Shown: in pieces, positions 78-60,833 of the stretch | How the letters are laid out: every line of letters begins with the position of its first letter | Numbering within the stretch: position 1 is the stretch's first letter | DNA from: a virus | Length of the DNA: 64,000 nt | Direction: 5' to 3' (one strand) | Virus record (IMG/VR): IMGVR_UViG_3300042508_000428 | Notes under the pieces: model-generated | The model's database searches: none | What the model was told of the DNA's origin: nothing | What the model saw: the letters and a program-made list of their open reading frames with translations, nothing else | Made by a program: the position numbers and the translations under genes

Positions 78-971
78 ATGAGAGTTGAGAAATGGGATAT
101 TTTGATGCACCGCCTTCTAACAGAAAAGAAGGAAAAAGAAGAAAAAGCAAGCAAATCGAAAGGTTCAAAGCCAGATTTTCTTGATTTAGATAAAGACGGT
201 GATACTTCTGAACCAATGAAGAAGGCATCAAAAGAGTCGGGTGGTAAAAAAGAAACAAAATCCAAGAAAGGAAAAGGCAAGATCCCTCCTCAACTAAAAA
301 TGCACATCAAGAAAAAGAAAAACAAACTTGATGAAGCAATTGAGAGACTAGAAAAAATTCTTTTTGAACAACACGATCTTCAAGAATATGGAGAAGATAA
401 ACACCCTGATATTGAAGACGACGATGATGATTTTGATGCTGATGATCTGCCATCCTATGGTGAAGAAGACTTTGGTGATTATGGCGAAGAAAGTATGAGA
501 AAATTTGCTCAAAAATCAAAAAATTTTGCAGATAAATACACCGAAGAAGATGACTATGAAGAAGAGGAAGAAGAAGATTACGAAGACGAAGATGATTTTG
601 AAGATGATGATGATATGGAGGACGAAGAAGTTGAAGATGATGATGATATGGATTTAGATGATGAAAATGATATGGAAGAATATCTAACCGAAGCAGAGGT
701 TAAGAAAAAACAACCACGACTTGGTAAAGTAACTCGTAATCCATCCGGCTCAAAAAAAAAGTTTCACGTCTACGTTAAATGTGGCGGAAGAGTAAAGAAG
801 ATCTCATTCGGTGATCCAGGATTATCAATTAAAAGAGATTCTGCTGCCCGTAGAAAGAACTTTAGAGCAAGACATAAGTGTGATCAACCAGCAGGAAAAG
901 ATCGTTGTACAGCGAGATATTGGTCTTGCTATCAATGGAGAGCAGGAAAGAAGGTTGAAGGCGAGGAGTAA
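78..971 (+). CDS. Asp/Glu-rich protein with basic C-terminal Cys/His domain (FGDPGLSIKRDSAARRKNFRARHKC..RYWSC) of a type seen in large phages
   Basis: ORF with GGAG RBS, acidic low-complexity core, motif recognised by eye. Confidence 0.8.
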   Translation: MRVEKWDILMHRLLTEKKEKEEKASKSKGSKPDFLDLDKDGDTSEPMKKASKESGGKKETKSKKGKGKIPPQLKMHIKKKKNKLDEAIERLEKILFEQHDLQEYGEDKHPDIEDDDDDFDADDLPSYGEEDFGDYGEESMRKFAQKSKNFADKYTEEDDYEEEEEEDYEDEDDFEDDDDMEDEEVEDDDDMDLDDENDMEEYLTEAEVKKKQPRLGKVTRNPSGSKKKFHVYVKCGGRVKKISFGDPGLSIKRDSAARRKNFRARHKCDQPAGKDRCTARYWSCYQWRAGKKVEGEE

Positions 972-1825
972 TGAAACAACTTCTTGAAAATTGGAATAGA
1001 TTTATCTTAAAAGAAGCTTCGTACCGCCAAGTTATGGAAAGATTTGGTAGTTCAAAGTTTCTTAAATCTTCCGAATTTAATCAAGTTGACCCAGAAGAGG
1101 CAAAGCAAAAGATATTAGAAACTGTACCAGAGAACTTTGATGTTCAAGAAAAAGCAAATTATCTGGATTGGAGAATCTCAACCTTTATCAAGACTGGTAA
1201 ATATGAAGGTCCATCTGCTGAAATCGTCAAAAGATATTATGAGATTAAGTCTGACGAAGGCAAGAAGAAACTCCTTAACAAAATTAACATCTCAGATATA
1301 AACTCTGTTGAAGAATTTGAAGAGATCGTCTATAATGCTGAAGGATCTCTTGGAGAAAAAGAGAAGAGTAGAAAAGAAGAAAGTACATCTGGTGAAGGTC
1401 AAAATCTTGTTTATGAAGATGATAATTGGAAAGTATATCTTCCAGAAACCAAAGGAGCATCTGTTGCCCTATGTCGTGGACCAAACCCAGACGGAATCAA
1501 GGGTAAATCAACCAGAGCAAAATGGTGTACTGGTGTGTTGACAAGAAAGTATTATGAGGTTTATCATAAACCAGATAATCCTCTGATTATTTTTATTTCT
1601 AAATCTGATCCCGCTGAGAAATATCAACTTAGTTATTTTGGAATTTCAAGCGAATCTCCGTTCTGGAATCCAAATGATCCTGAAAAACCAGAATTTAAAA
1701 ACAACAGAGACAAAGACATTACAGGAACGGATGTATTTTCGGAACTAAATAATATAGTAGCAAGTCTTGAAGATAAACTTCCAGAGAGAGTTGTTAATAA
1801 AGCAAAAAAATTTGCAGGAATGTAA
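971..1825 (+). CDS. Hypothetical protein with N-terminal W-tag (MKQLLENWNRFILKE)
   Basis: Translationally coupled ORF, shared N-terminal motif. Confidence 0.8.
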   Translation: MKQLLENWNRFILKEASYRQVMERFGSSKFLKSSEFNQVDPEEAKQKILETVPENFDVQEKANYLDWRISTFIKTGKYEGPSAEIVKRYYEIKSDEGKKKLLNKINISDINSVEEFEEIVYNAEGSLGEKEKSRKEESTSGEGQNLVYEDDNWKVYLPETKGASVALCRGPNPDGIKGKSTRAKWCTGVLTRKYYEVYHKPDNPLIIFISKSDPAEKYQLSYFGISSESPFWNPNDPEKPEFKNNRDKDITGTDVFSELNNIVASLEDKLPERVVNKAKKFAGM

Positions 1826-1827
1826 AA

Positions 1828-2172
1828 ATGAACTTTAAAGATATAAACGACAAATGGAAATCCTTCTTGACTGAAAATGCTTTCAAAGAAGATAAACTTG
1901 TCAAAAAAGATAAGAAAGAAAAAGTTAAAGATAAAAAAGGCAAAAAGAAAGAATTAATTGTTTCCGAAGAAGATGATGTAAATGAATGGGAAGAATTTGA
2001 AGAAGCCGTAATTAATGAACCATCTGGCGCTGGTGTAAATAAAGCAATAAACTCCGTAGAAGAAAATGAACCACTAGAAGAAATGTCTGCCATGTCCGGC
2101 GGAGCAGTTCAGGGTTTTGCTGGTAATGCTTTTGGAACTCCTGTTAGAAGAAGAAAAAAGAGAAGACATTGA
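1828..2172 (+). CDS. Hypothetical charged protein with N-terminal W-tag
   Basis: ORF 2 nt after previous stop. Confidence 0.7.
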   Translation: MNFKDINDKWKSFLTENAFKEDKLVKKDKKEKVKDKKGKKKELIVSEEDDVNEWEEFEEAVINEPSGAGVNKAINSVEENEPLEEMSAMSGGAVQGFAGNAFGTPVRRRKKRRH

Positions 2173-2197
2173 CAACAACAATAACTTGTCGTATCAT
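2169..2197 (+). promoter_or_regulatory. sigma70-type promoter of thyX
   Basis: TTGACA-N17-TATCAT. Confidence 0.75.
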
Positions 2198-13400: not shown

Positions 13401-13931
13401 ATGAAAAAAAAGATCTTGACAAAACCATTTGGTCATGTTAGCATAGGTTCGAAGCATTATGTTGTGGAAGTTGCTATGGATGATCAATCTCGTCACAAAG
13501 GACTTTCCAAGAGACATAATCTTGACGAAGGACTCGGCATGTTATTTGATATGCCAAAGGAAGATGTTCATTCTTTCCAAATGAAAGAAACATACATACC
13601 GCTTGATATGGTATTTATTGGAAAATACGGACAGATTGTTGATTACATACCAAATGTTCAACCACTCACCGCTGGACCATATTCCCCAAAAGAGAAGTGT
13701 AAGTTTGTTTTGGAAGTTAGAGGGAACGATTTAAAGGACGAAATAAAAGAAAAAGCTCTTGCAAAAATGAGATTCTTTGATACAATGGAGAAGGCTCAAG
13801 CATACAGAGATAAAAGAATGCTTCAAGAGCAGTTAATACATTACTTAAATGAGGCGATTAATGGCGAAGGCATACGAAGGAAACAAGATTCTTCAAGAAA
13901 AAGTTCTAAACGGAGTGGAAAAACTCTCTAA
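13401..13931 (+). CDS. DUF192-family protein
   Basis: VEVA..R.KGL..R..L....GMLF....FQMKETYIPLDMVFI pattern. Confidence 0.85.
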   Translation: MKKKILTKPFGHVSIGSKHYVVEVAMDDQSRHKGLSKRHNLDEGLGMLFDMPKEDVHSFQMKETYIPLDMVFIGKYGQIVDYIPNVQPLTAGPYSPKEKCKFVLEVRGNDLKDEIKEKALAKMRFFDTMEKAQAYRDKRMLQEQLIHYLNEAINGEGIRRKQDSSRKSSKRSGKTL

Positions 13932-15429
13932 CATTGTAAGTTCTACCCTTGGACCTGGTGGTAGAAATGTAATCCTACAACAAAAAGATAAAAGACCAAT
14001 CATTACAAAGGACGGAGTAACCGTTGCTCGTTTTGTTGATTTTGAAGATCCATTTGAAAATGTTGGAGCACAGATTCTCAAGCAAGTCTCGGCTCTTACT
14101 GCTCACGAAGCAGGTGACGGAACAACTACTAGTACCCTCCTAGCACATAGAATGCTTAAAGAATCTCAAAGATTTATTTCTGCTGGAGTTTCTCCAACTG
14201 AAATGAGAAGAGGAATGGAAAGAGCATCAAAGGATGTTATTGAGTTTGTTCAGTCAAAAGCAAAAACTATTCAGTCAATCGAAGATATTGAGAACATTGC
14301 GACAGTTTCGGCCAATAACGATCCAGTTATTGGTAAGTTGATTGCCAAGGCAGTTGATCTGGCGGGAAAGAACGGAGCAATAACAATTGAAGATTCAAGA
14401 TCTTACGAGACAGAACTTGATCTGACAGAAGGGTTTATCTTTGAATCCGGTTATCTATCTCCTCAATTCATTACTGACGAGATGAGGAAGGTTGCAAAGC
14501 ATAATGATTGTCTTGTCTTTATTACAGACTGGAAACTGGAACATGTTGAACCAATCCTCCCAGTGTTAGAGTTGGCATCAAGAGAAAAGAAACCATTAGT
14601 AATTGTTGCTGATGATATTGAAGGTCAATTGCTTGCTGCACTTATTGTTAATGCTGTTCGTAATTCAATGAAAGTTGTTGCTGTAAAAGCCCCTTACTAT
14701 GGAGAAGAGAGAAGAAATGTTCTGGCTGATCTTGCTGTTGCTACTGGTGGTAAGTTCTTTACTCGCGAGTCTGGTTTGGATTTCAGTTCCTTTACTCTCG
14801 CGGATTTTGGACGTTGTAAAGGAGTCGAGATTGGAAAGTCTCAGACAGCAATCATCGGCGGAAAAGGATCCGCTGAAGCAATTGATAATCGTTCAGAAGA
14901 ACTAAAACAACTAATCAAAGAAACAAATGATCTTGAGGAATGTAAGAGAATTCAAGATCGTGTTACTAGACTAGCAAGTGGAGTCGTTTCAATTAGAGTC
15001 GGTGGTTCAAGCGAAGTAGAGGTGATTGAGAAGAAACATCGCATTGAAGACGCCTTAGAGGCGGTTAGATCCGCCCAACTAGCGGGAACCCACCCAGGGG
15101 GAGGTGTAACGCTTCTACGAGCTTCTAGAACCCTTAAGGCCCCAAAGTTACCACAAGATCAAGTTGACGGATATAACATTGTTATTAGATCCTTATCTGC
15201 TCCGTTTGAAAAGATCTGCGAGAATCTTGACCTTGTTCCACAAACTTTGGCAGAACGAGTCACCAAGTCAAAGGATGGATATGGACTTGACGTAAAGACC
15301 CTGAGGGTGGTAGACTTGTATGAGGCAGGCGTGATAGATCCTGTTCGTGTGACAACTTCTGCGGTCAAGAATTCTGTATCAGTTGTTTCTACTTTGATTA
15401 CAACAAACAACGCAATCGTGGAGGTTTAA
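13861..15429 (+). CDS. groEL: Phage chaperonin GroEL homologue
   Basis: TLGPGGRNV, ITKDGVTVA, GDGTTT, GGGVTLL, GVIDP motifs; no GGM tail; no groES in window. Confidence 0.97.
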   Translation: MAKAYEGNKILQEKVLNGVEKLSNIVSSTLGPGGRNVILQQKDKRPIITKDGVTVARFVDFEDPFENVGAQILKQVSALTAHEAGDGTTTSTLLAHRMLKESQRFISAGVSPTEMRRGMERASKDVIEFVQSKAKTIQSIEDIENIATVSANNDPVIGKLIAKAVDLAGKNGAITIEDSRSYETELDLTEGFIFESGYLSPQFITDEMRKVAKHNDCLVFITDWKLEHVEPILPVLELASREKKPLVIVADDIEGQLLAALIVNAVRNSMKVVAVKAPYYGEERRNVLADLAVATGGKFFTRESGLDFSSFTLADFGRCKGVEIGKSQTAIIGGKGSAEAIDNRSEELKQLIKETNDLEECKRIQDRVTRLASGVVSIRVGGSSEVEVIEKKHRIEDALEAVRSAQLAGTHPGGGVTLLRASRTLKAPKLPQDQVDGYNIVIRSLSAPFEKICENLDLVPQTLAERVTKSKDGYGLDVKTLRVVDLYEAGVIDPVRVTTSAVKNSVSVVSTLITTNNAIVEV

Positions 15430-18464: not shown

Positions 18465-18966
18465 GTATGCAGAGTGGTCAGTTGATTTAATCAAAGAAGA
18501 TGTACAAAGAAACACCCTCCCGTATGCGTGTTTAATGTCGCATGTCGAGGGTGATTTCAATATGTCCACGGCGGTAAGAAATGCTAATGCATTTGGTTGC
18601 AAAGAACTATTTTACTTTGGACAAAAGCGATGGGACAAGAGGGGGTCGGTGGGTACACACCACTACTCCCTCGTATCTCATTTGAAGGATATTGATGCGA
18701 TTAAAGCATTAAAGTCCAAGTATAAATTTGTTGCGATTGAATGCAACATCGAAAGAAATTGTGTTTCTCTCTTTGATTATAAAATTGAACCGAATACCAT
18801 GTTTATCTTTGGCGAAGAGTCAAAGGGATTGAGCGACGAGATACTCGATCTCTGCGAAGATTATGTTTATATCCCAATGATTGGTTCAGTTAGAAGTCTC
18901 AATGTTGGTACAGCAAGCGGAATTTTGATGGCAGAAGCGATGAAATCGATTTCGCATACTATTTAG
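18448..18966 (+). CDS. SpoU/TrmH-family (SPOUT) RNA 2'-O-methyltransferase
   Basis: DFNMSTAVRNANAFG, FGEESKGLS, IPMIGSVRSLNV SPOUT motifs. Confidence 0.92.
   Translation: MNVQSKYAEWSVDLIKEDVQRNTLPYACLMSHVEGDFNMSTAVRNANAFGCKELFYFGQKRWDKRGSVGTHHYSLVSHLKDIDAIKALKSKYKFVAIECNIERNCVSLFDYKIEPNTMFIFGEESKGLSDEILDLCEDYVYIPMIGSVRSLNVGTASGILMAEAMKSISHTI
18958..18965 (+). promoter_or_regulatory. ACTATTTA putative late promoter element
   Basis: Directly upstream of the exonuclease gene. Confidence 0.6.
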
Positions 18967-18986: not shown

Positions 18987-20060
18987 ATGTATCAAAAGTT
19001 ATTTGAGAATTGGAGAAACTACAAAAAAGTAATTAAAGAAGACGTAATGCGTTATTCTGAATATGGTTCCTCGTTTCAAGAAATGAGAGAACTTATCAAA
19101 GATGCATCAGATAAGACATGGATATTCTTTGATACAGAAACAACAGGTCTTTCTGCTGAAAAGGACTTCCACCAAGTTACTCAAATAGCAGCAATCGCTG
19201 TCGATGTTAAAAACTTTGATGAAGAACCAGAGATTCTAGAGAAATTTAATGTTAAGATCCAGTTGGGAGATAGAACCCGTGGTTTTATGGATTGGGATCG
19301 TAGTAAGAAAGCAGAGAAACGAGCCGCCGCCCGTGCTGCTGGGGTAGAGGTAGCCCCCGGCATTAAGCGTATAAGACAAGAACCAGAGAAGTTCAAAGGC
19401 ATTTCTGATATTTTCTCTATGACACAATATGGTGTATCAAGAGATCCAGAAAAGGCAAGAAGAAAAGCGTTCTTACAGGCAAGAGAAATGCCTGGAAAAG
19501 AAGATATCTCAATGGAAGATGTACCAGAGTCCGCTACATTTATGAGACTTGTTCCAGCACTAGAGCAATTCAACGAATTTCTAGATAGATATCCAGATAG
19601 AATTCTAGTTGCTCAAAATGCTCCATTCGATAATGGATTCTTAAATAACATGTATCAAAGAATTGGAGAAGTTCCGCCTGATGACATTGTTGTTGACACA
19701 GTTATGATTTTCAGAAAGTTCTTAACCCCTGCACTAAAAATGTTTAAGGCGACCAGAGAAGCAGGAGAAGAACTAAGTCCAGAAGATTCAAAGATTCTCG
19801 ATGCTCTAACCTCAGATAAGGGTAAACTAACTGTATCCTTAGGAAAGATTATTAAGGCATTTGACGTAGAAAACAAGGGCTGGCATGATGCTCTTGCCGA
19901 TGTGACAATGCTTTTGGATGTTCTAAAAGCAGTTATTAACTTCTTGGATGTTCGCACTGACCTATCTTCATTAGAACCAGAGCCAGAACCAAAACCAAGA
20001 GAGAAGAAAGTTAGTAGTCAATTAAACTTACCAGAACCAAAACCATCTGATATTGGTTAG
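18987..20060 (+). CDS. DEDDh (DnaQ-like) 3'-5' exonuclease with N-terminal W-tag
   Basis: FFDTETTGLS (Exo I), AQNAPFD (Exo II), WHDALADV (Exo III). Confidence 0.9.
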   Translation: MYQKLFENWRNYKKVIKEDVMRYSEYGSSFQEMRELIKDASDKTWIFFDTETTGLSAEKDFHQVTQIAAIAVDVKNFDEEPEILEKFNVKIQLGDRTRGFMDWDRSKKAEKRAAARAAGVEVAPGIKRIRQEPEKFKGISDIFSMTQYGVSRDPEKARRKAFLQAREMPGKEDISMEDVPESATFMRLVPALEQFNEFLDRYPDRILVAQNAPFDNGFLNNMYQRIGEVPPDDIVVDTVMIFRKFLTPALKMFKATREAGEELSPEDSKILDALTSDKGKLTVSLGKIIKAFDVENKGWHDALADVTMLLDVLKAVINFLDVRTDLSSLEPEPEPKPREKKVSSQLNLPEPKPSDIG

Positions 20061-33099: not shown

Positions 33100-33107
33100 A
33101 GCATCAT

Positions 33108-35209: not shown

Positions 35210-35238
35210 AAACAAACTAAAGAAGATTATTCGCCCAC

Positions 35239-35291
35239 TTGACACAAAAACCCTCCTCTGCTATAGTTAGGTATATAGAGAGGAGGGTTTT
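35239..35291 (+). promoter_or_regulatory. sigma70-type promoter with 13-bp inverted repeat covering downstream RBS
   Basis: TTGACA-N17-TATAGT; AAAACCCTCCTCT/AGAGGAGGGTTTT. Confidence 0.8.
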
Positions 35292-35294
35292 GCT

Positions 35295-35755: not shown

Positions 35756-35764
35756 ACAATTAAC

Positions 35765-36123: not shown

Positions 36124-36136
36124 AGCGGAGAATAAA

Positions 36137-36788
36137 ATGCCTTATATCAGATTGACAACTTATACTGCGAAAGAGTTGAGAGAAAAGTTGTTGGAAGTTG
36201 TTCATGAGATTAGTCTTGCGAATGAAGATGAAATCTATTCTGGTTCTCTTGACTTCTCATCGACAGATGAAGTTAGAGGCAGTATCGCTTATGATATGGA
36301 GATGCATTATGATTTCTCTGTTAGTGAAAAAGAACTACGAGAGAACTTGGAATTTGTTCCTCCCCATGTGATTCATACATACAATACTTATCCAGAAGAT
36401 TGTGCTAGAGATAATGATCGTTATTGGGAAATTGTAAATGATATGAAACAGGATATATTTTCTGATGATATTTCACCTTTCTTCCCAAAGAAGGATGAAC
36501 CAAGCGAGGAAAAAGATGAACCAAAGGAAGGCGATTAGAATTGTTAATTCCAAGAACTTTATTTGGATGGAAGGTATGCTCGCCTACATTCCTGTTGAGG
36601 ATGAATGGCATCCCATTCGTCTAACTCCTCCACTTGTGGATAATTGGAATTCTAAACAAATTAAAAACTGCTTGCCAGATATTGACGACCCTGCTACTAT
36701 TGGGTGTCTGCTTGTGCTGGCAGGAGAAGAAATTGATCTTGATAAGATCGAAGAAATGTTGGAACCAGAATCGGATATGATTGCTTAA
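36137..36788 (+). other. Two hypothetical ORFs (36137-36538; about 36516-36788)
   Basis: GGAG RBS after tmRNA; starts adjusted. Confidence 0.6.
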
Positions 36789-45104: not shown

Positions 45105-45386
45105 GGTGGCTTGCGATAGACCCCAAACAGAATGGGGTTCAATCAACGGTTTCCCGCTGTAGGGAAATGCAGTTGGACGCAAGCCACCATTCGCGGTGTG
45201 GTTCCACCGATTGGAAGTGAACCCATCCCGCTGTGGTTGAACAGCACAGCAGGCGACGGTTACGCCGATTGGAAGCTAACCCATCCAACCGTGGATGACA
45301 AGCACGGCTACTTGCACAATCGTCTAAATGGAAAGTGCGCGTGAATATACGCGTGATGCGGGTTCGACTCCCGCTTGTGCAAGCCA
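45105..45386 (+). ncRNA. Putative multi-domain ncRNA with two CGATTGGAA-loop hairpins and a 3' tRNA-like domain
   Basis: 11-bp stem 45105-15/45178-88; repeated hairpins; T arm GCGGG-TTCGACT-CCCGC; 6-nt anticodon loop. Confidence 0.7.
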
Positions 45387-49791: not shown

Positions 49792-49799
49792 ACTATTTA
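49792..49799 (+). promoter_or_regulatory. ACTATTTA putative late promoter element (further copies at 50951, 51656, 55540, 58057, 62332)
   Basis: Intergenic copies upstream of late-type genes. Confidence 0.65.
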
Positions 49800-49803
49800 A
49801 TCT

Positions 49804-50421
49804 ATGATGAAATCATTATTAACAGAGTGGCGTAATTTTATTCTCAAAGAGAATTGGATTCGAATCAAAGAAGAACCAGAAACAAGAGACTCAGATCTTT
49901 CTCCTACAACTTGTGCTTATAAGGGTCAAAAAGGAACTTGCATGAAGTTCCTTCAAAAGAAGAATGGTAAGAAAATTGTTGTAACAATGTTTGAACCAGA
50001 TCCTAAACAAGCAAGTGTTGCAAAACAAGAATCATACTTTAAACCAGAAAATATAAAAAAAGTTTTGGAAATGCTAAATGATTCAAAATCAATTTTTGCA
50101 TATGAACAAGAATCGGGATCTGAAATCTTGGAACCAGAACAATATCTTAAAGAATTAAAAGCAAAGTGTCCAAGAGATCCAAGAACTGCTTATAATTATG
50201 CACAAATTAATAATACTATATTAATTGCTATTAATCAAGAATACAATAAATATAAAAAACAATTTCCAAATCAAGAGTATCCAGATTGGGTGGAACAAAA
50301 TATAAACGTTCTTGAACAAAATCTTATTAAAAAATATGTAGGAGCACCTCAAGAAATTCAGAACATAAATTATTTTAGAAATAATGATGATCTTTGTTTA
50401 ACACTAATTGGACTTAAATAA
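49804..50421 (+). CDS. Hypothetical protein with W-tag (MMKSLLTEWRNFILKE)
   Basis: Shared N-terminal motif. Confidence 0.75.
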   Translation: MMKSLLTEWRNFILKENWIRIKEEPETRDSDLSPTTCAYKGQKGTCMKFLQKKNGKKIVVTMFEPDPKQASVAKQESYFKPENIKKVLEMLNDSKSIFAYEQESGSEILEPEQYLKELKAKCPRDPRTAYNYAQINNTILIAINQEYNKYKKQFPNQEYPDWVEQNINVLEQNLIKKYVGAPQEIQNINYFRNNDDLCLTLIGLK

Positions 50422-50951
50422 TGAAACAAATTTTAACAGAGTGGAGAAAGTATGTCAATGAGGAATTAACGGATGTGGTCGTTCCGGAGGAACAAAAATA
50501 TCCAAGATTTCCAGGATTCGACATAAACAAAGTTGATTTTAAAATTAAGTTTGGAAAGTTAAGAGACTTATTGGTAGATGATAAAAAGATAAAAAAATTA
50601 AGAGTTCCAAGTTGGTCTTTGCAAACAGATGCATATTTAAATCCTGGAGAAAATGATATTGCTGCGGTTGCATATGATGGAGATCGACCTGTTGCAATTG
50701 CTGCTATAACACAGGATAAGTATAGTCCATATGGTTTGATAAATGTATATGTAGATTCTTGGTATCGTGGTCTTGATTTGGCAAGCAAAGTTATTGATAA
50801 AGCATTGGAAAATTCTGGACATTGGAAAAAACTTGTTGCTTCAAGAGTTCCTGTTAAAATGTTAAAAAAGCGCGGTTATGAAACAACCGATAATTATTGT
50901 AATTATGTTGATTGTGAGGTTTTTAGAAACAAGAACTATAAAAAAATATAA
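50421..50951 (+). CDS. GNAT-like acetyltransferase with W-tag
   Basis: INVYVDSWYRGLDLASKVI resembles GNAT motif A. Confidence 0.65.
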   Translation: MKQILTEWRKYVNEELTDVVVPEEQKYPRFPGFDINKVDFKIKFGKLRDLLVDDKKIKKLRVPSWSLQTDAYLNPGENDIAAVAYDGDRPVAIAAITQDKYSPYGLINVYVDSWYRGLDLASKVIDKALENSGHWKKLVASRVPVKMLKKRGYETTDNYCNYVDCEVFRNKNYKKI

Positions 50952-50976
50952 CTATTTATACAAAGAGGTATTTTAA

Positions 50977-51567
50977 ATGAAAGAATTAATTGCTGAGTGG
51001 AGAAAATATATTAACGAGCAAACTGCTCAACAAGCTCCAAGTCAAGATGTCATTGCTAGTGCTCTTGGATATTTGATGACATATGTAAAAGATAATCCAA
51101 ATAAATTATCTTCTATTGAACCAGCAATTAATGAACTTGTTGCTTATAGAACAAATCCCAAATCAGCATTAAGTCAAAAGGTTTCAACAATTGCGTTAAA
51201 TAAAGCAAGGGATACAGCACAACAAGATCCTGAATTGTTTAATTTTTGGAAAGGTTATGGAAACATGGATGTTGCAAAATTCTTGAATTCAATTCGTTCC
51301 AAACCTTCAACACAAGCGCAAGAACAAGCAAAAGATCAACCAGCCTCACAGCCAAAAGTAACTGAATATAGATTTAAAGGCAGGATTGACTCACCAGAAA
51401 TAAAAGTGGACGATGATGGTACTGTAACAGCTACGGTTACAAGTCCAGATGCACCAGGAATAGTTGGTGTTGGCAAGGTGTCTGGTATGAAAAATTTTGG
51501 TCTTGCAAGAGATGCTGCAATTTCAAGAGCAATAACAGATCTTGCGAGAAAAGCGCAGCAACAATAA
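50977..51567 (+). CDS. Hypothetical protein with W-tag (MKELIAEWRKYINE)
   Basis: GAGG RBS, shared motif. Confidence 0.75.
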   Translation: MKELIAEWRKYINEQTAQQAPSQDVIASALGYLMTYVKDNPNKLSSIEPAINELVAYRTNPKSALSQKVSTIALNKARDTAQQDPELFNFWKGYGNMDVAKFLNSIRSKPSTQAQEQAKDQPASQPKVTEYRFKGRIDSPEIKVDDDGTVTATVTSPDAPGIVGVGKVSGMKNFGLARDAAISRAITDLARKAQQQ

Positions 51568-51668
51568 CAAATTTTAATAAACAAATTCAAAAAAAATTTT
51601 TGGAAAAATTTCGCGATTTTGGTCTTTGACTTTTATCCTGTTTCTAGGTTCTTTGACTATTTATTGGT

Positions 51669-52394
51669 ATGATGAAACAATTATTAACAGAATGGCATAA
51701 ACATATTTTAAACGAAGTTAAACCACAAATCAAACCAAAAGTTAAACCACAAGTTAAAACCCCACAGGCTCCAACTCCTGGTAAATTCTCATATACTTAT
51801 AGTCCAAAATTAATTTCCTTTTTAAAATCAAGAGAGGCATTTAAAAGTAGTCCATATCAAAAGAAGGGCGATAGACCAACAATTGGTTATGGGACAACTT
51901 ATTATGTAAAAAATGGTAAAGAAGTTGCTGTTACATTAGATGACAAACCAGTAACAGAGCAACAAGCAAATCAATTAATGCTTGATTATTTAAACCAGAT
52001 TGTTATGCCTAGTTTGAATCGATACCTTAAAGATAAACCATTGACACAAAATCAAATAGATGCTCTTGCCTCTGTTATGTATAATATGGGAAATAAAGGA
52101 TTTTTAGACACAGAATTGTTTACGGTAGCAAGTTTAAATCCAGATGATCCAAAAGTAAAAGATCTTTTTTTATCTGATGAAGTTGCAACTGTTGGAGGAA
52201 AAGTTTCTTTAGGATTAAAAAAGAGAAGAAGAGAAGAATTAAATATGTATTTAATTCCTGGTTCAGGAAATATTAGTAAGGGAACAGTAACTCCTCCAGG
52301 GGAAATTAAACCGATTTCTTCTGCTTCTCCTCAAAAATCTGATCCAAAAGAACCAGAAGAAGATATGTTGTCAAGATTTTTAAGAAAATTTTAA
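51669..52394 (+). CDS. GH24 (T4-type) lysozyme with W-tag
   Basis: REAF...PY....RPTIGYG, QNQIDALAS..YNMG, GL..RR..E. Confidence 0.9.
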   Translation: MMKQLLTEWHKHILNEVKPQIKPKVKPQVKTPQAPTPGKFSYTYSPKLISFLKSREAFKSSPYQKKGDRPTIGYGTTYYVKNGKEVAVTLDDKPVTEQQANQLMLDYLNQIVMPSLNRYLKDKPLTQNQIDALASVMYNMGNKGFLDTELFTVASLNPDDPKVKDLFLSDEVATVGGKVSLGLKKRRREELNMYLIPGSGNISKGTVTPPGEIKPISSASPQKSDPKEPEEDMLSRFLRKF

Positions 52395-52406
52395 TTGGAA
52401 TTTAAT

Positions 52407-54632
52407 ATGAAAAAGAAAAGTCTTTATCAAAAATTATTGGAAGCAATCGATAATCAATTAAATGAGATTACTCGTGAAAAACTTAGAGGCACAAAATTAC
52501 AAACTTATATTTCTAAAAAAGAAGATGTAACAACTCAATTAAATCACATATTTGAAGGGCAAAATCGTATATTAATTCCTTTTAATACGGGAACGAATTA
52601 TACAGGCAGAGATGCCGAAATGATTGAATATATCAATATGTTAAGGAACGAAGGTTGGACAATCGATTTTAATGAACCATTTGGTTATGCCACAAAAATT
52701 GTTAAATCTGAATATGGTGGCAAAACATTTGAAACAAAAAGAAAAGAACGACTTGGTCCTTTGTTCGCCAAAATGGGCAGAGAAGCAAGTGAGTTTTGGC
52801 AAAAACATAATAAGTTTTATACAACAAAAGAGAATGAATTTTATTTTAATAAAAAATATACAATTATAATTTCTAGAGTTCCAATGGATATTTTAAGAAT
52901 GTCTGATCATGATGGTTGGAGTTCTTGTCACGGAACACACGGTAGTTATTTTAAGTGTGCTGTCTCAGAAGCGGTTGATGGCGGAGCAATTGCATACGTT
53001 GTTAATAACGATGATGTTCAAGGACTTGATTTAACAAAAGCAGAAATATTTGCCGACTGGGAAAGACAAGTTTCTGGTATCAAGCCTCTATCAAGATTAA
53101 GAATCAGAAGATTTGTTGGAACTGATAAATATCAAGGAATTGAACTAGGAATACCAGAGCAAAGAGTTTATGGACAATCTTTTGAAGGTTTCTACGAAGC
53201 AATTGCTAGTTTTGTTCAACAAAAACAAACTGATATGACATCGAAACTTAAAGATGTTGTAAGCAAATCAAGAGATCCTGTTGTAAGATTGGATTATTTT
53301 TTTCTAACCGGAGGATCATATCAAGATCATCCAGGAAGAGAATTGTTTGAAGAGTTTTATGGAAATGAATTTAAGTTTAAATATGAGACAAGTTATAGAG
53401 CATCTACATCAGAAAGGGAAGAAGTAGAAGGAAGAGTTGCAGAAATAGTAGAAAATTTTAATAATCAAAGCAAACATGCTTCTCTATCTGCCGATGTTGA
53501 TGTTGGAGAAGAAGAAATTATAGTTAATGCAACTGCAAGATTTGTAATTGATTTTAACGAAGCAGTTGATGTTGCCAAAGCAAAAGCAGTTGAAAATTTA
53601 GTACAAGATAAATTAACTAATTTTAAATATATGTTTCGTGGCGACATGAGTGTAGAATATTTTGAAAAAGAACCTGGAAAATATTTTCCAGAATTTAGAT
53701 TTTTAATTGATTTAGATGAGGATTATGAAACCAGCGTAGATGGTTTAGAAATATTTGCTCGCGATTTATTTTATGCTGAAGAAGATTACTCATCGGCTTT
53801 GTTATCTATTAAATCAGCATATATAACTTACGGAGTTATAGAAAATGAATATTTTGAAAAAATAAAAAATTTAAATCTAAATAAACTTGAAAATATTGAA
53901 ATAAAAGACGGAATTATTTTTACAAGATTAAAAGAAATGAGATTTCTAAATGATTTTGAAAAAATAAAAAATGAAATTGTTAATCAACAACCTCAAGAAA
54001 CAAGAGAAAAAATTGATACAACACTTTATGATAGAGATCCTAACATTACCTATGCAATAAGAAGAGATTATTTAGAAGAGGCGATGTTAAACACTGTTTC
54101 TCAAATAAAAGAAAACTTTCTTAGTGGAAATTCATTTACACCAAAACAACCAGATTTATTTTTATCACAAGAAAAAACTGGATCTGATTTACAAGCTGGT
54201 TTAAATAACCTTTCAAAGTTTAATATTAATTTTAACATGGAAATTGGACCAATTGCAGACTATTACATATTTAGATCAATTATTCAATACGATGATGAAG
54301 AAGAGTTAACCGCTGGTCAAGACAGAAATAAAAATAGAGAAGTATTTATTAAATTTTTAACTTATTTAAATAACAATTATGCTCAAATTTTTCAAGCTTT
54401 TAGATCGATTGTTATACAAGCAAACGAAATGAGAAAAGAAAAAATGTTAGAAATCATAGAAAACATGAAATCTTTAAGAGATAAAGGCGGGTATATTCCT
54501 GCAGACTTATCGCAAAGAAGACTTACTCAAACATTAAAAGGTCGCGATGGTCAAGAATATCAAGAATATATTGAAGAAAAGAAAAATAGGTTATTTAAAT
54601 TAGACGGGGCAACTTGGAGAATACTTAAATGA
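52407..54632 (+). CDS. Large hypothetical protein (ISRVPMDILRMSD..SSCH motif)
   Basis: About 740-aa ORF, AT-rich. Confidence 0.75.
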   Translation: MKKKSLYQKLLEAIDNQLNEITREKLRGTKLQTYISKKEDVTTQLNHIFEGQNRILIPFNTGTNYTGRDAEMIEYINMLRNEGWTIDFNEPFGYATKIVKSEYGGKTFETKRKERLGPLFAKMGREASEFWQKHNKFYTTKENEFYFNKKYTIIISRVPMDILRMSDHDGWSSCHGTHGSYFKCAVSEAVDGGAIAYVVNNDDVQGLDLTKAEIFADWERQVSGIKPLSRLRIRRFVGTDKYQGIELGIPEQRVYGQSFEGFYEAIASFVQQKQTDMTSKLKDVVSKSRDPVVRLDYFFLTGGSYQDHPGRELFEEFYGNEFKFKYETSYRASTSEREEVEGRVAEIVENFNNQSKHASLSADVDVGEEEIIVNATARFVIDFNEAVDVAKAKAVENLVQDKLTNFKYMFRGDMSVEYFEKEPGKYFPEFRFLIDLDEDYETSVDGLEIFARDLFYAEEDYSSALLSIKSAYITYGVIENEYFEKIKNLNLNKLENIEIKDGIIFTRLKEMRFLNDFEKIKNEIVNQQPQETREKIDTTLYDRDPNITYAIRRDYLEEAMLNTVSQIKENFLSGNSFTPKQPDLFLSQEKTGSDLQAGLNNLSKFNINFNMEIGPIADYYIFRSIIQYDDEEELTAGQDRNKNREVFIKFLTYLNNNYAQIFQAFRSIVIQANEMRKEKMLEIIENMKSLRDKGGYIPADLSQRRLTQTLKGRDGQEYQEYIEEKKNRLFKLDGATWRILK

Positions 54633-55537
54633 TTAATTGGTATAAATTTTTATTAAACGAAGGAACAAGAAACTTCCTTAATCATAATCTTCGATATATT
54701 TCATTTATATCTCCAGAAAGAGGTAATGCAACTTTATTAAATTTATCAAGATTTTATACTGAAGAAGAATTTATAAATGCATTAAAAGAATCAAATACTA
54801 TAAAAATAATGAGTGAATACCAGATTGATGAACTTTTAGGTAAAGGAGCAATGGGTCTTGCCTTTACATTAAAAGATCCACATGAAAATTATATTTTAAA
54901 ATTTCAAATTCTTGATGAAGATGCTATACATGAAGGCGGAGAAGTTGGAACTGAATACATCACTCATCTTTACAAAAAACAAGAACAAGATGATTTTGAT
55001 CCCAAAGAATTAAGAGTTTTAGATTCTGAAAAAGGATTTGCAACTATAGGAAGCAACGATAAGATATTTATCTCCGCTACAGTTATGGCGAAAGCAGCGC
55101 AAACTGGTATATCTGGTAAAACAGGAAAACCAATGACCACTGATGATGTAATGAATGATATTATTAGAACAAGAATTAAATATATAATTATGAATATTGT
55201 AGATTTGAAACATGCAACACAAGATTTTAGAAAAACAAGTATAACAAAAAAAATAAAAGAAGATACACGTGCATCAGATTATGAAGGAGAAAGAATAGAA
55301 CACCTTTTAAAAATAGGTGATAATAAAAATCTTTTTAGACTTTTGTACAGCATTTTTGATATTAGAAATTTGCTTCGTCAATTATCTGAAAAACAATTTA
55401 TAGGTATTTGTTTACAATTATATAAAATTATGGACGAAGCATTTGTTAAAAACGGTTATCACGTAACACTGGATCTACATAGTGGAAACTTTGGATTCAG
55501 ACCGAATTCAGATATTCCAATCTTCTTCGACATTTAG
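54629..55537 (+). CDS. Protein-kinase-like enzyme with W-tag
   Basis: Gly loop LGKGAMG, Lys in ILKF, catalytic loop DLHSGN, terminal FFDI. Confidence 0.75.
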   Translation: MINWYKFLLNEGTRNFLNHNLRYISFISPERGNATLLNLSRFYTEEEFINALKESNTIKIMSEYQIDELLGKGAMGLAFTLKDPHENYILKFQILDEDAIHEGGEVGTEYITHLYKKQEQDDFDPKELRVLDSEKGFATIGSNDKIFISATVMAKAAQTGISGKTGKPMTTDDVMNDIIRTRIKYIIMNIVDLKHATQDFRKTSITKKIKEDTRASDYEGERIEHLLKIGDNKNLFRLLYSIFDIRNLLRQLSEKQFIGICLQLYKIMDEAFVKNGYHVTLDLHSGNFGFRPNSDIPIFFDI

Positions 55538-55570: not shown

Positions 55571-56509
55571 ATGCTAATTAAAAGAGGTATGACAGGTCCA
55601 GTGGTTGCATCTTTGCAACAAAACCTAGAAGATCTAGGTTATGAATTGGGCAATGTAGATGGAGCATTTGGTAAGAATACAGAAGCCGCTGTAAAAGATT
55701 TTCAAACAAAGAAAGGTCTTGGTGCAGACGGTGTTGTTGGTCCAAAAACATTACAAGCAATTGATGCTGCTCTAAAAGCTGCTGGTAAAGAAGGCGCAGA
55801 GTTTGATGACCAACCAGAAGAACCCCCCGCAGTTGTTCAAGAAGCTGCTGTAAAGATGGGCTGGGTTACATGCCCCGCCGATAAAGTCGCTGGTAAAGAC
55901 GGTTACGGTTCAACAGTATTAAGAACCGATGCTTCCGTGGTTTATAAGAATCTAAAAGCCGAAGTAAATGCCCTTGGTGGTGTCGTAACCTCTGCTGGTG
56001 GTCGTCGTGCCCTAAGCTCTGGTGCTGGTCCTGCAAGATCAAAGACCTCCATGCATTATACTGGTTTAGCTTTTGATATGTCATTGGCAACTGGTATGCA
56101 AAACTTCGATACAGATCCTTATCTCTGTGTAAGAGTTGAAGGAACTCGTAAATGGACCGTGTGGTGCAAATCACCAAATGCTCCAGAAGTTACACTAGAT
56201 GCCGTTGTTTGTAGAACAAAAGGCGGTAAAACCGTTCTAGAAACAAAGAAGATGACTGTAAAAGCCTTCAATTTCACAGAAGTCGCAGCCAAGCATGGTT
56301 TCGTAAACATTTCAGCAAGAAAGAGTTTCTTTGAGGGTGGAGCCTATGGTGGTGCTGAATGGTGGCATTTCCAATATGACAAAGCCCTAACAAAGAATGT
56401 TTCTAAGTTTGGTGAAGAATTATTAAAAGTTTACTCCTTAAATGAAGCTCAAAAGTTTGTATACTGGAGCGAAGTAAAAGATAACGTTTATGGCGTCAAC
56501 TGGTTCTAA
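55571..56509 (+). CDS. Endolysin: PG-binding domain plus M15-type peptidase
   Basis: LQQNLEDLGY..VDGAFGKNTEAAVKDFQ..GLGADGVVGPKT; SMHYTGLAFD; EWWHFQY. Confidence 0.9.
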   Translation: MLIKRGMTGPVVASLQQNLEDLGYELGNVDGAFGKNTEAAVKDFQTKKGLGADGVVGPKTLQAIDAALKAAGKEGAEFDDQPEEPPAVVQEAAVKMGWVTCPADKVAGKDGYGSTVLRTDASVVYKNLKAEVNALGGVVTSAGGRRALSSGAGPARSKTSMHYTGLAFDMSLATGMQNFDTDPYLCVRVEGTRKWTVWCKSPNAPEVTLDAVVCRTKGGKTVLETKKMTVKAFNFTEVAAKHGFVNISARKSFFEGGAYGGAEWWHFQYDKALTKNVSKFGEELLKVYSLNEAQKFVYWSEVKDNVYGVNWF

Positions 56510-56518
56510 GAGGTATAA

Positions 56519-56932
56519 ATGAAAACTTGGTTAAAAGACAACCTACCCACACTGGCAGTATTTACAATTATTCTAGCTACTTGTCTCTGGTTTAAAAATC
56601 AGTTTGATAAAGATGCGCTTGAAGAAGCACAACATCAACATGTTTTAGAACTAGAAAAACAGAGAAAAGCTTATGATGCTCAAGTAGAACAAATTAATAA
56701 AGTAAATGCTGAAACAATAGCAAAGCAGAAGTTATTGATGGAAGAATACAAAAACCATCTTGACTCTTTACAACTTGAATACGATCAAAAGGTAAAAGAG
56801 TTAGAAGATTTGCGTGTTACAAAGATTCAAGAACTCACAAAGAAAATCAAACAAGACCCAGAAGTTGTTCTCGACAACCTTGCTCACAAGTTTGGTTTTG
56901 AAGTTGTTCCAATAACAGAGGATGTTCCATGA
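56519..56932 (+). CDS. i-spanin-like protein (N-terminal TM plus coiled coil)
   Basis: Position after endolysin and predicted topology. Confidence 0.55.
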   Translation: MKTWLKDNLPTLAVFTIILATCLWFKNQFDKDALEEAQHQHVLELEKQRKAYDAQVEQINKVNAETIAKQKLLMEEYKNHLDSLQLEYDQKVKELEDLRVTKIQELTKKIKQDPEVVLDNLAHKFGFEVVPITEDVP

Positions 56933-57360
56933 ACAAACTAATCGCCATTATTCTATGCTTTATGTTTGCTTCGCCAGCATTTGCTGATGGAAAAGTAGCA
57001 AGTATCAAGGAGGGTCAGAAGGCTCCATTTACCGGTTATCTATTTGACCCTGCTGCATTTGCCACAATAGAAACAGATAAAGAGTTGTTAATAAAGAAGT
57101 GTGAGGCAGACAAAGAGTTCTTAGTAAAGAAGTGTGATGGCGAATGTAAATTCATAAATGATACTTGCAAAAATGAAAAGGAAGCGCTTGAAAAAACCTT
57201 CAAGATTCAACTCGATACAAAGAATAGCGAGATAACAAGATTAAATGAAATAATCAATGGTCACAAGCCAGTCAGCAGAGGTTTGTGGTTTGGAATTGGT
57301 GCCGGAGTTGGTGTTATCGTTACGACTGGACTAGTTATAAGCATAGCAAAGATTTTATAG
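56929..57360 (+). CDS. Signal-peptide protein with C-terminal TM helix, possible spanin partner
   Basis: SPAFA cleavage site; GLWFGIGAGVGVIV tail. Confidence 0.5.
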   Translation: MNKLIAIILCFMFASPAFADGKVASIKEGQKAPFTGYLFDPAAFATIETDKELLIKKCEADKEFLVKKCDGECKFINDTCKNEKEALEKTFKIQLDTKNSEITRLNEIINGHKPVSRGLWFGIGAGVGVIVTTGLVISIAKIL

Positions 57361-57372
57361 GAGATTAAATGA

Positions 57373-57813
57373 ATGTCAATAAAAGATGCATTAGCAAACG
57401 TAATAAAGTCAGAGGGTCAAGTGCAAGTTCCACAAGATAAATCAAACCGTTTCAACATTCTTTTTCAGAGAATGATGAGTGTTAGATGGTACATTACATT
57501 TATCACAATGGTTACATTGCTCGCCATTCTCTGTGGTATCGTTCTTTCCATTATGGTAAAAGCAACAATGGAACAAGAATGGAAAGAGATACTACTTCTA
57601 ATACTTGGTGCCTTCATTGGTTCCTACAATAGAGTCATTGACTTCTGGTTTAATAATTCCCAAAGAGATCAGATAATGCTACAAAAGATTGATGAAGAGG
57701 ACGACCCACCAGGAACTCCAAAATCAGATACATTGTTGGTATCTCCTCCGCAAGATGCTATTGAAGTCAAAATGCCAGAACCAGTTCCAACAAAATCCAA
57801 AGAGGATAAATGA
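57373..57813 (+). CDS. Two-TM holin-like membrane protein
   Basis: Two hydrophobic helices, lysis-cassette position. Confidence 0.5.
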   Translation: MSIKDALANVIKSEGQVQVPQDKSNRFNILFQRMMSVRWYITFITMVTLLAILCGIVLSIMVKATMEQEWKEILLLILGAFIGSYNRVIDFWFNNSQRDQIMLQKIDEEDDPPGTPKSDTLLVSPPQDAIEVKMPEPVPTKSKEDK

Positions 57814-58043: not shown

Positions 58044-58082
58044 TTCTCTCTAAGCGACTATTTAGTTAGAGAGGTTTATTGT

Positions 58083-58447: not shown

Positions 58448-59239
58448 ATGAAATTAATTGTAGAAAATTGGCAAAATTATATTGAAGAAGGTATTGAAGA
58501 TGGAGAGCACAACTTCAAATATTATGCTTTTGACTGGGATGATAATATTGTTGAAATGCCAACAAAAATTATTCTTTTAGATAAATCTGGTAATGAAGTT
58601 GGCATGGGAACAGAAGATTTTGCTCACTATAGAGGAATGATCGGCAAAGAAGAATTTGATTATGAAGGTGTTGTCGTAAAAGACTTCGCCTCAAATCCAT
58701 TTAGAAACTTTAGAGTTGCAGGTGATGGACAATTCTTAAAAGATATTCGTTCTGCGGAACCTGCTCCTTCTTGGAATGATTTTGTCGAATGTATTAATTC
58801 AGCATCAATTTTTGCTATTATTACAGCAAGAGGACACAAACCATCTACCCTTAAAAGAGCGGTATATAAATATATAATCTCGAATCATGATGGAATTAAT
58901 TCTGGGGAAGTAAAAAGAAATATTCAAAAATACAATAAACTTTTTAACAAAACTAATAAAGATAGTTCAATTCAGGGATACTTAGATCTTTGTAAATTCT
59001 ATCCTGTTTCTTTTGGACCAATGGCATCAATGGCAAGTCCAGAACAAGCAAAAGTTCAAGCATTAGGTGAATTTATTGATTATTGTCAAAAAATAAATAA
59101 ATATATGCCAATTAAAGTTGGTTTTTCTGACGACGATGGAAAAAATATTGATCTCATTGAGAAACACTTTGGCGAACCAAGAGAACTAGTTAGTATGACA
59201 ATTAAGTATACAGGCAAACAACATGGAGAGAAAAAATGA
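58448..59239 (+). CDS. HAD-superfamily phosphatase/nucleotidase-like protein with W-tag
   Basis: FDWDDNI (motif I), IITARGH (II), GFSDDD (IV). Confidence 0.8.
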   Translation: MKLIVENWQNYIEEGIEDGEHNFKYYAFDWDDNIVEMPTKIILLDKSGNEVGMGTEDFAHYRGMIGKEEFDYEGVVVKDFASNPFRNFRVAGDGQFLKDIRSAEPAPSWNDFVECINSASIFAIITARGHKPSTLKRAVYKYIISNHDGINSGEVKRNIQKYNKLFNKTNKDSSIQGYLDLCKFYPVSFGPMASMASPEQAKVQALGEFIDYCQKINKYMPIKVGFSDDDGKNIDLIEKHFGEPRELVSMTIKYTGKQHGEKK

Positions 59240-59616
59240 AGTTAGACATTAATACACTAAGAAAAGCAGTTAATCAAAAACTTGTTTCTGAGCAATTTGT
59301 TGGATTTGCTGAGCCAGTTGAGGTTCATCAAGGTTCTCACAGTTCTTTCGGTCATGATGATTTTGAAGAAGATCACAACTATAGTCATGATTATGAAATG
59401 CATATGGATGATGGACACACAGATGGTGGTGAAGAACAAGAAATGATTAAACAAAATCTTTTTCAACTCTCCGTTTATGCTGCCAAACTCCATGATTTAA
59501 TGGAAGAGGGTTGTGATACTGAAGAGTGGGTACAAGAAAAAATTGTAGAAGCAACCTCAAAAATTAGCGATGTTTATCACTACCTAGAATATCAACAATA
59601 TAAGAAATCGAGATAA
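59236..59616 (+). CDS. Hypothetical large-phage protein (EWVQEKI...ISDVYHYLEY)
   Basis: Coupled ORF. Confidence 0.7.
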   Translation: MKLDINTLRKAVNQKLVSEQFVGFAEPVEVHQGSHSSFGHDDFEEDHNYSHDYEMHMDDGHTDGGEEQEMIKQNLFQLSVYAAKLHDLMEEGCDTEEWVQEKIVEATSKISDVYHYLEYQQYKKSR

Positions 59617-60833
59617 TGAGAAATGATAATTTAACTCATGATTGGTTAGACTTTGTTGCCGAACACAAAGAGGCAAATAAACTTGTATTAAAAGAACAAG
59701 AAACAAAAAAAATTGGTGATGTTAACGTAATTGTTAAACATGGTTTAGAATTTAGATCTTCTGAAAGAACTAAACCAATAAAAGGCGTCGTAATTCATCA
59801 TACTGCTGGCAATACTCCTTCTGCCACTTTTGCAACCTTAAAATACAGTAAAAGTCCAAAATCTACAAATTACGAAGTAGATAAAGATGGAACAATTTAC
59901 GAATATATCCCAGCAGATAGAGTTTCTTGGGCAACTGGTGGTGGGGCAAATGAACATACAATAGGAATAGATTTAACACACCTAAGCGGAGCAAAATGGC
60001 CTCCTGCTCAAATAGATGCAGTAAGAAGACTTGTTCAAGCGTTAGCAAAAAAATATAATTTTGGATTAGTTGTTGCTCCAGATAAAGGACCAATGAGATG
60101 GCCCGAGTGGCAGAAAGAAGGTGGCGGATATACTTTGTTTAGACATAGAAATTTTGTTAATACTGGATGTCCTGAAAATTTTCCGATGGATCAATTAGCA
60201 TCTGGAGGTTCTTCAGTTTCAAGCGGTCCTGAAAATTTAACTAAATTTGATATTAGTAACCCTGAAACATATCTACCAAGTTTACTATCCACTTCTGATG
60301 ATGAAGAGCCTGGAGTTTTATCAAAGGCTTATGATTATATAAAAGATATTGGATCTTCTGCTTGGGAAAAAGTTAAATCTGTATTTACAGAATCAATTGA
60401 TGAAAAATTATTTCATGTTCAAGATAAATCCAAAAATAAAATTTATGAAAATAATAAGAAATATTTTGATTCACTTTTAATGTTCTTAAAAAAAGAACTA
60501 AAAATAACAAAACCAGTTAAAATTATCCTTGAAGAGGATGAAAAAAATTCTAAAAAAGTTTTAGGTAGAACTGGTGGATATGTAAATCAAGAAAACAAAA
60601 TTCATATCTTTGTGACCAATAGACACGTAAAAGACGTTTTAAGATCTCTTGCTCACGAGATGGTTCATCATAGACAAAACATTCGCGGAGAATTTAAGAA
60701 AAATCAACCAACGATTCATGGTTATGCACAACAAAATCCACATTTAAGAAAAATGGAAAAAGAAGCGTATTTAAAAGGAAATATGACTTTTAGAGACTGG
60801 GAAGACGATTATAAATACAGAGGTAAAAAATAA
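59616..60833 (+). CDS. N-acetylmuramoyl-L-alanine amidase fused to an HExxH metallopeptidase-like domain
   Basis: VIHHTAG, YEVDKDG, FRHRN..CP; SLAHEMVHHRQ. Confidence 0.8.
   Translation: MRNDNLTHDWLDFVAEHKEANKLVLKEQETKKIGDVNVIVKHGLEFRSSERTKPIKGVVIHHTAGNTPSATFATLKYSKSPKSTNYEVDKDGTIYEYIPADRVSWATGGGANEHTIGIDLTHLSGAKWPPAQIDAVRRLVQALAKKYNFGLVVAPDKGPMRWPEWQKEGGGYTLFRHRNFVNTGCPENFPMDQLASGGSSVSSGPENLTKFDISNPETYLPSLLSTSDDEEPGVLSKAYDYIKDIGSSAWEKVKSVFTESIDEKLFHVQDKSKNKIYENNKKYFDSLLMFLKKELKITKPVKIILEEDEKNSKKVLGRTGGYVNQENKIHIFVTNRHVKDVLRSLAHEMVHHRQNIRGEFKKNQPTIHGYAQQNPHLRKMEKEAYLKGNMTFRDWEDDYKYRGKK

Follow-up and report, generated by a model that had tools for sequence, protein, structure and literature searches.

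A tryptophan-bearing N-terminal leader shared by unrelated late proteins of an uncultured marine T4-type phage as a candidate capsid targeting sequence

This analysis concerns a 64,000-nucleotide stretch of viral DNA (the window) from the IMG/VR virus record IMGVR_UViG_3300042508_000428, and a short tryptophan-containing leader, hereafter the W-tag, found at the N-terminus of unrelated proteins encoded there. The window corresponds to the minus strand of the 77,468-bp record, which is estimated to be 37% complete. The phage is an uncultured marine member of the T4 type with no close cultured relative; the window encodes a DnaE-type polymerase, 15 tRNAs, and a transfer-messenger RNA (tmRNA), and almost all of its genes lie on the plus strand. 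An earlier reading of the sequence alone had listed 11 N-termini with a leader of this kind, and all of them are present in the DNA at the coordinates collected in Table 1.

The W-tag and its carriers in the window

With the strict pattern W..[FYH][ILV].{1,2}E, 10 matches are observed among the 137 called genes of the window, nine of them beginning at residue 4-10 (genes 971, 1828, 49804, 50421, 50977, 51669, 54629, 58448, and 59616, each designated by its first nucleotide). Residue-shuffled proteomes give approximately one strict match anywhere in the proteins, hence ~0.04 at the N-termini, and a looser N-terminal pattern is found in 11 window genes against 1.8 expected. The proposal that a leader is shared by unrelated late proteins is therefore borne out. 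The membership proposed for all 11 proteins holds for the nine strict cases and for the exonuclease gene 18987, whose tag is a W-tag with a 3-residue insertion, but not for gene 78, which carries a different and weaker W-containing leader. Counting these two variants, the W-tags of the window are 11-18 residues long.

The consensus of the tag is M-K-x-[LI]-[LMI]-x-x-W-x-x-[FY]-[LIV]-x-E, with the hydrophobic positions 4, 5, 8, 11, and 12 on one face of a helix. The first 12 codons of the tags are 58-81% identical in nucleotide sequence, and the Leu, Glu, Arg, and Ile codons vary among the copies; since the codons differ synonymously, the likeness lies at the level of the peptide. No Sec or Tat signal features (a hydrophobic core of at least ~10 residues, or a twin arginine) were found in the tag, charged and hydrophobic residues alternating in its column composition. 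Moreover, in the AlphaFold2 (AF2) model of the 54629 protein, the tag is predicted as a short, low-confidence helix that is not packed against the fold.

Behind the leader, the proteins differ. The domain labels of the earlier reading hold in Pfam for the exonuclease (RNase_T), the acetyltransferase (GNAT), the lysozyme (Phage_lysozyme), and the amidase (Amidase_2), and the peptidase part attributed to the last protein is visible in the sequence as an HExxH motif after the amidase domain. In the lysozyme, the tag is followed by a Pro/Lys-rich linker and the catalytic domain starts at approximately residue 54. The labels "kinase" and "HAD phosphatase" fare less well. For the 54629 product, the AF2 model has a mean predicted local distance difference test (pLDDT) score of 77.8, and its Foldseek matches are all protein kinases or aminoglycoside phosphotransferases, the best E value being 3.5e-4 with low template modelling scores; a Gly-rich loop and an HxxN motif are also present in the protein, and the Joint Genome Institute annotates one homologue as a Ser/Thr kinase. 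These data weakly suggest a kinase-like protein. In its homologues down to 43% identity, W4, Y5, F7, L8, and E11 of the short tag are invariant. On the other hand, the HAD label of the 58448 product derives from motifs and one Atlas lead only, and it is unconfirmed because the AF2 model is poor (pLDDT 38) and a phmmer search of the PDB with this protein gave no match. For the 971 product no Pfam family is found, and its homologues carry MORN-like repeats. The tail of the 1828 protein is basic, and additional [ILV]xE sites occur at several places in this protein; in the gene 78 product the basic C-terminal domain comprises ~95 residues, with an L-x-E site just ahead of it.

The tagged genes also share an upstream motif. 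The box ACTATTTA occurs 13 times on the plus strand of the window against 3 expected, and 12 of these copies sit 12-38 nt ahead of a start codon. Most of the tagged genes had been placed in units preceded by this motif; in fact all 11 are headed by it, directly or within a tightly coupled unit (78-971-1828; 18987; 49804-50421; 50977; 51669-52395-54629; and 58083-58448-59236-59616). In the closest relative of the window phage, the record G001 (88% DnaE identity, colinear with the window from -2005 to 39516), 17 of the 19 copies are followed by a start within 60 nt. Because copies in G001 stand ahead of the tail sheath gene and of the scaffold-like gene that immediately precedes the capsid gene, ACTATTTA is read as a putative late promoter. 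At 49792-49806 and 51656-51671, the box lies only 4-5 nt before an ATGATG start with no Shine-Dalgarno sequence, which suggests that the late mRNAs of the 49804 and 51669 units may be leaderless or nearly so.

Table 1. Leader-bearing and neighbouring genes in the window, and genes with second-class leaders in related records
Record	Coordinates	Strand	Product	Leader and associated features
Window	78..971	+	Charged protein, basic C-terminal domain (phrog_7595)	Variant leader MRVEKWDILMHRLLTE; ACTATTTA 48-55
Window	971..1825	+	284-residue protein	W-tag 971-1015, MKQLLENWNRFILKE
Window	1828..2172	+	114-residue charged protein	Short-form W-tag ..DKWKSFLTE, 1828-1875
Window	18987..20060	+	DEDDh (RNase_T) exonuclease	W-tag variant 18987-19040; own ACTATTTA 18958-18965
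Window	49804..50421	+	205-residue protein, no family assigned	W-tag 49804-49851; ACTATTTA 49792-49799
Window	50421..50951	+	GNAT acetyltransferase (Pfam)	W-tag 50421-50462
Window	50977..51567	+	196-residue protein, no family assigned	W-tag 50977-51018; ACTATTTA 50951-50958
Window	51669..52394	+	GH24 phage lysozyme (Pfam Phage_lysozyme)	W-tag 51669-51716; ACTATTTA 51656-51663
Window	52395..54632	+	745-residue protein, no family	Non-W helical leader ending LNE; same late unit as 51669 and 54629
Window	54629..55537	+	302-residue protein, putatively kinase-like	Short W-tag MINWYKFLLNE, 54629-54661
Window	55571..56509	+	Peptidoglycan-binding protein (PG_binding_1)	Untagged; small membrane and signal-peptide protein genes next
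Window	58448..59239	+	263-residue protein, HAD-like motifs (unconfirmed)	W-tag 58448-58489; ACTATTTA of the unit 58057-58064
Window	59616..60833	+	Amidase_2 (Pfam) with C-terminal HExxH region	Short-form W-tag ..HDWLDFVAE, 59616-59663
Window	60833..63781	+	Two proteins, 488 and 471 residues, with Gly/Ala-rich hydrophobic segments	Non-W [IL]xE leaders
G005 (L062-L071)	28, 300, 4967, 7209, 7457, 7798, 8705, 74189			Second-class leaders
G004	28110, 98165, 98809			Second-class leaders
G001	62226			Second-class leader

Leaders in related phages

Relatives of the window phage were collected by a DnaE search, which gave 34 related IMG/VR loci, whereas none was found with the tagged lysozyme (51669) as the query. 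Proteins encoded in the window recur on contigs as long as 179,912 bp. The W-tag heads four proteins of G004, a complete 185-kb relative genome, and others in G002 and G003, and a 16-column profile of the leader has matches in G006, G007, G008, and G009; in G008, five tagged genes stand in tandem with near-identical tag DNA. Beyond this clade, the profile gives no match in five records of a sister clade (40% DnaE identity), in the uncultured phage LR756508, or in the cultured T4-like phages whose capsid proteins are closest, namely Flavobacterium phage immuto, Microcystis phage Mel-JY01, and Rhodothermus phage RM378. A further search, with a profile of 40-residue N-termini against 5.8 billion proteins, reveals tagged proteins of many kinds in marine metagenomes, including LRV/HEAT-repeat, HExxH, ParB-like, and SH3-containing proteins. 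Once the tag is removed, the metagenomic and genomic examples fall into at least 31 families (BLAST E 1e-5). No description of such tags in uncultured T4-like phages was found in the papers searched.

Among 64 distinct tags selected by MK.....W..[FYH][ILV] alone, Glu not being required, a Glu follows behind an aliphatic residue in 63, at W+6 in 50 and at W+7 in 13; the single tag with no Glu at either position has I-N-E three residues downstream. Thus 63 of the 64 fit aliphatic-x-Glu, the cleavage motif of the T4 prohead protease gp21.

Leaders also occur inside proteins. The leader of window gene 78 is internal in a 698-residue fusion protein of G001 (71546-73642), behind a domain that by eye resembles a cell wall hydrolase; the gene 78-971 is separate in the window and fused in G001, with the junction exactly at the leader. 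Also, in the protein P0028 a module bearing a leader of its own comes first, and a canonical W-tag follows at approximately residue 264. Because the tag is found internally at the domain boundaries of fusion proteins, it would act as a peptide module with no need of an mRNA start.

The exonuclease allows leaders to be compared within one family. A survey of the 120 best homologues of 18987 (P0128-P0247, 28-100% identity) gave 107 with W-type leaders of several subtypes, canonical and short forms included, and 8 classed with a second leader class, ..L[RK][RK]II[KR]E.., one of which (P0246) is W-type on inspection; 5 are leaderless, two of them fragments. This DEDDh, DNA polymerase III (Pol III) epsilon-like family is therefore nearly always leader-tagged across the whole range of identity. 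Since one exonuclease family bears W-type, second-class, or no leader, the leaders appear to be swappable modules, and their interchangeability on one enzyme argues for equivalent address functions.

The second class, MKITKRQL[RK]RII[KR]E, is the dominant shared leader of the sister clade that is devoid of W-tags, with at least eight proteins in G005, and it coexists with W-tags in the clade of the window phage (Table 1). There it heads small genes, in G001 close to the gene for the protease and in G004 within the head-gene region, a position that recalls T4 genes 67 and 68. Both classes have in common the arrangement hydrophobic-x-x-hydrophobic-hydrophobic-x-Glu.

Neighbouring genes and layout of the window

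Not all neighbours of the tagged genes carry the W-tag. The two proteins encoded at 60833-63781 are candidate ejection proteins, their sequences being reminiscent of membrane-inserting ones. Between tagged units lies the stretch 55571-57813, which encodes, in order, the PG_binding_1 protein, a membrane-anchored protein, a signal-peptide protein, and a 146-residue protein, and which is probably a lysis cassette. Family searches for a catalytic domain in the 55571 wall protein identified none. The wall hydrolase of this lysis-like cassette is untagged, whereas the two other wall hydrolases of the window (51669 and 59616) are tagged.

The left and right cargo sets of the window phage are parted by ~47 kb of replication and tRNA genes. 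In the complete genome of G004, a single cluster at 9.6-24 kb holds counterparts of cargo genes from both ends: -2005 and 78 on the left, and 59616, 65145, 67239, and 68168 on the right (49.8-68 kb in window coordinates). The window region 27220-47957, between the two late blocks, has a higher GC (guanine plus cytosine) content and holds the 15 tRNA genes and the tmRNA (35765-36123); a tRNA-like call at 45312-45386 is odd in having a 4-base anticodon. At 13401-15429, a DUF192 protein gene is followed by a 526-residue open reading frame (ORF; 13849-15429) that is GroEL-like by eye only. Finally, mismatches to the genome sequence affect 14 of the 24 bases at the very end of the window (63977-64000), the remainder being identical, which is probably an artefact of cutting the window.

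The W-tag as a candidate capsid targeting sequence

In T4, a capsid targeting sequence (CTS) is present on IPI, IPII, IPIII, and Alt and is removed by the prohead protease gp21 (Mullaney & Black 1996; PMC9026906, PMC3012670). These CTSs are propeptides of 10-19 residues, and residues 1-10 of IPIII are enough for encapsidation, with residues 4 and 7 serving targeting and residues 8 and 10 serving processing (PMC9026906); diverse T4 internal proteins likewise carry CTSs (PMC3012670). The leader MKTYQEFIAE, which the sequence-only reading had taken as the point of comparison, is indeed encoded twice in the T4 genome, with identical DNA, at the start of ipII and ipIII. The core of the W-tag, W8-x-x-[FY]11-[LIV]12-x-E14, has exactly the spacing of T4 Y4-x-x-F7-I8-x-E10, as a match of pattern only.

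Several features bring the W-tag close to the T4 CTS: it is a short N-terminal propeptide-like leader that ends in aliphatic-x-Glu and is spread across unrelated proteins, and the set of cargos varies. Expression of the genes would also be late, to judge from the putative promoter, and a head module of the T4 type with an S77 protease is found in the closest relative of the window phage. The near-identical tag DNA of neighbouring genes in the G008 cluster also resembles the ipII/ipIII pair. However, the W-tag runs to 14-16 residues, has an invariant Trp, and gains a further turn (LL) on its N-terminal side; its enzymatic cargos are larger and more numerous (~10 within 64 kb, and no fewer than 31 families in total), and a second interchangeable leader class exists. 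The W-tag system is known here from sequence alone. The idea that the tag mimics the N-terminal end of the capsid protein or protease was also considered and dropped, as the profile hidden Markov model (HMM) of the tag does not score those sequences; resemblances are at pattern level only (T4 gp23 ..LLNKWKPLLE|G, T4 gp21 ..QLLIE|TW, and a MKNLLTEY.. start in the proteases of the clade).

Encapsulin tags are usually C-terminal and uncleaved. As in the W-tag proposal, encapsulin cargo-loading peptides and the Dar system of phage P1 use a short address or dedicated partners for loading enzymes into an HK97-fold shell (PMC9024508, PMC12810830), but P1 packaging relies on DarA and Hdf, with no clip-off consensus tag. 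In the giant phages phiKZ, 201phi2-1, and SPN3US, many internal or ejection proteins are cut after Glu by the prohead protease, and their propeptides, some of them conserved between paralogues, are thought to target proteins into the prohead (PMC5694885, PMC7411985). These propeptides differ from the W-tag in being mostly 80-160 residues long, in having an [AS]-x-E motif, and in the lack of a single portable short tag.

The head machinery needed for such a role is found in the relatives of the window phage. G001 has a T4-type head module with Terminase_6N, Portal_T4 (gp20), a gp21-type Peptidase_S77 (32786-33376), and a 628-residue Gp23 capsid protein; its scaffold-like protein is encoded at 34575-36236. 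S77 protease genes are also present in G003, G004, and G005. Both G001 and G004 have a capsid protein that keeps an LLRE|[AS]S site shortly ahead of the conserved mature domain, and in scaffold-like proteins the density of [ILV]xE sites is 3.6-6.8 per 100 residues, the background being 1.7. On account of these kept sites and of the site-dense scaffold-like proteins, the T4 cleavage rule plausibly holds in this clade.

Based on these comparisons, we consider it probable that the W-tag is a lineage-specific, T4-like CTS, a distinct form belonging to this clade and serving an unusually large set of enzymatic cargos. The principle is the one known from the T4 CTS and involves no new mechanism. The helix would first bind a protein made late in infection to the scaffold core of the prohead under assembly; the head protease, of the gp21 type (Peptidase S77), would then cut the tag off after its Glu, and the mature enzyme would remain in the capsid and exit with the DNA at infection. 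The docking residues would be W and [FY], and [LIV]-x-E would be the cleavage site. The earlier proposal of a packaging tag is partly supported, agreeing with the enrichment, the [ILV]-x-E end, the T4 spacing, the shared putative late motif, the fusion joints, the leader swapping, and the presence of a T4-type head module with S77 in relatives.

Other observations weigh against capsid targeting. No S77 gene is found in the 77-kb record of the window phage itself, so the link of the window to the protease runs via its relatives; this absence is expected, since the fragment stops short of the head genes, the head module of G001 being ~35-45 kb upstream of the equivalent of the window. A scan of 40 kb of T4, covering genes 20-24 and alt but neither ipII nor ipIII, gave no meaningful match to the tag HMM; the resemblance to the T4 CTS is accordingly confined to pattern and spacing, with homology not demonstrable. 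Also, the Glu is shifted by one residue in 13 of the 64 tags, which breaks the exact T4 register. The clade has no cultured member, and packaging, cleavage, and injection are predictions. Finally, the cargo on which the tag is most widespread is an exonuclease that resembles Pol III epsilon, and the phage uses DnaE for its replication; a replisome-related role for the N-terminal helix of this cargo is possible.

This last point leads to the first alternative, in which the tag is a docking helix that gathers enzymes on an intracellular partner (the replisome, the phage chaperonin, or another hub), with neither packaging nor cleavage. The identity of its most conserved carrier is in line with such a role, as are the GroEL-length ORF at 13849-15429, recognised by eye only, and the predicted detachment of the amphipathic helix from the 54629 fold. 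However, docking of this kind leaves unexplained the near-invariant [ILV]-x-E end, the putative late promoter motif shared with structural genes, and the tags at polyprotein joints, and it gives no reason for a lysozyme, an amidase, a GNAT enzyme, and a kinase-like protein to share one hub; we regard it as unlikely. In a second alternative, the tag brings transient components to the prohead core, which are degraded or expelled at maturation like T4 gp67, gp68, and gp22, and nothing is delivered. The 1828-2172 and 78-971 proteins would suit this role, being of low complexity, highly charged, and rich in [ILV]xE, as would the second-class leaders on small genes adjoining the protease gene. Nonetheless, folded enzymes make up the majority of the tagged proteins, and sites of this kind are few within their domains; moreover, the T4 precedent for tagged folded proteins (IPI-III and Alt) is one of delivery (PMC9026906, PMC3012670). 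Core targeting with no delivery is thus rather improbable as a general account, and possible for the small charged proteins.

Two further explanations are very improbable. A recognition leader for a modifying enzyme, of the kind seen in ribosomally synthesised and post-translationally modified peptides or read by a radical S-adenosylmethionine (SAM) enzyme, could call on a single radical-SAM gene in G004, but this gene (46 kb) is distant from the tagged genes (9.7, 19.3, 89.6, and 152.7 kb), no Radical_SAM gene is found in G000, G001, G002, or G003, and the carriers are large enzymes rather than small peptides; this candidate was dropped for want of a cognate enzyme in G000-G003. An RNA-level element in the shared 5' coding sequence (such as an enhancer of translation initiation on leaderless late mRNAs) might be seen in the two tagged genes that start 4-5 nt past the ACTATTTA box with no Shine-Dalgarno sequence, but it was dropped in view of the synonymous codon differences among tags that keep their residues, and it shares with a secretion signal the further difficulties that the tag is also internal in fusion proteins, that its composition is charged and amphipathic, a hydrophobic core and a twin-arginine motif both being absent, and that its carriers include cytoplasmic-type enzymes.

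Returning to capsid targeting by the W-tag, a broader proposal may be made, which we hold tentatively and with less assurance than the CTS assignment itself. The two interchangeable classes of clip-off leader might together form a plug-in address system, by which dozens of enzyme families would be packed in the capsid and co-injected as first-strike effectors. Its cargos would include the near-universally tagged DEDDh exonuclease, the kinase-like protein, the acetyltransferase, metallopeptidases, and wall hydrolases. If this were true, the tag could be used as a sequence handle for mining uncultured phages for injected effectors.

If the W-tag is a capsid address, a simple sequence rule would list the proteins delivered by an abundant uncultured clade of marine T4-type phages. 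Proteins that are injected would act before phage gene expression and would therefore be prime candidates for counter-defence and takeover of the host. Moreover, the mapping of W and [FY] on the T4 targeting positions offers a testable model of prohead-core recognition. Then, the CTS principle, documented mainly in T-even phages, would be old and widespread and would serve large enzymes too.

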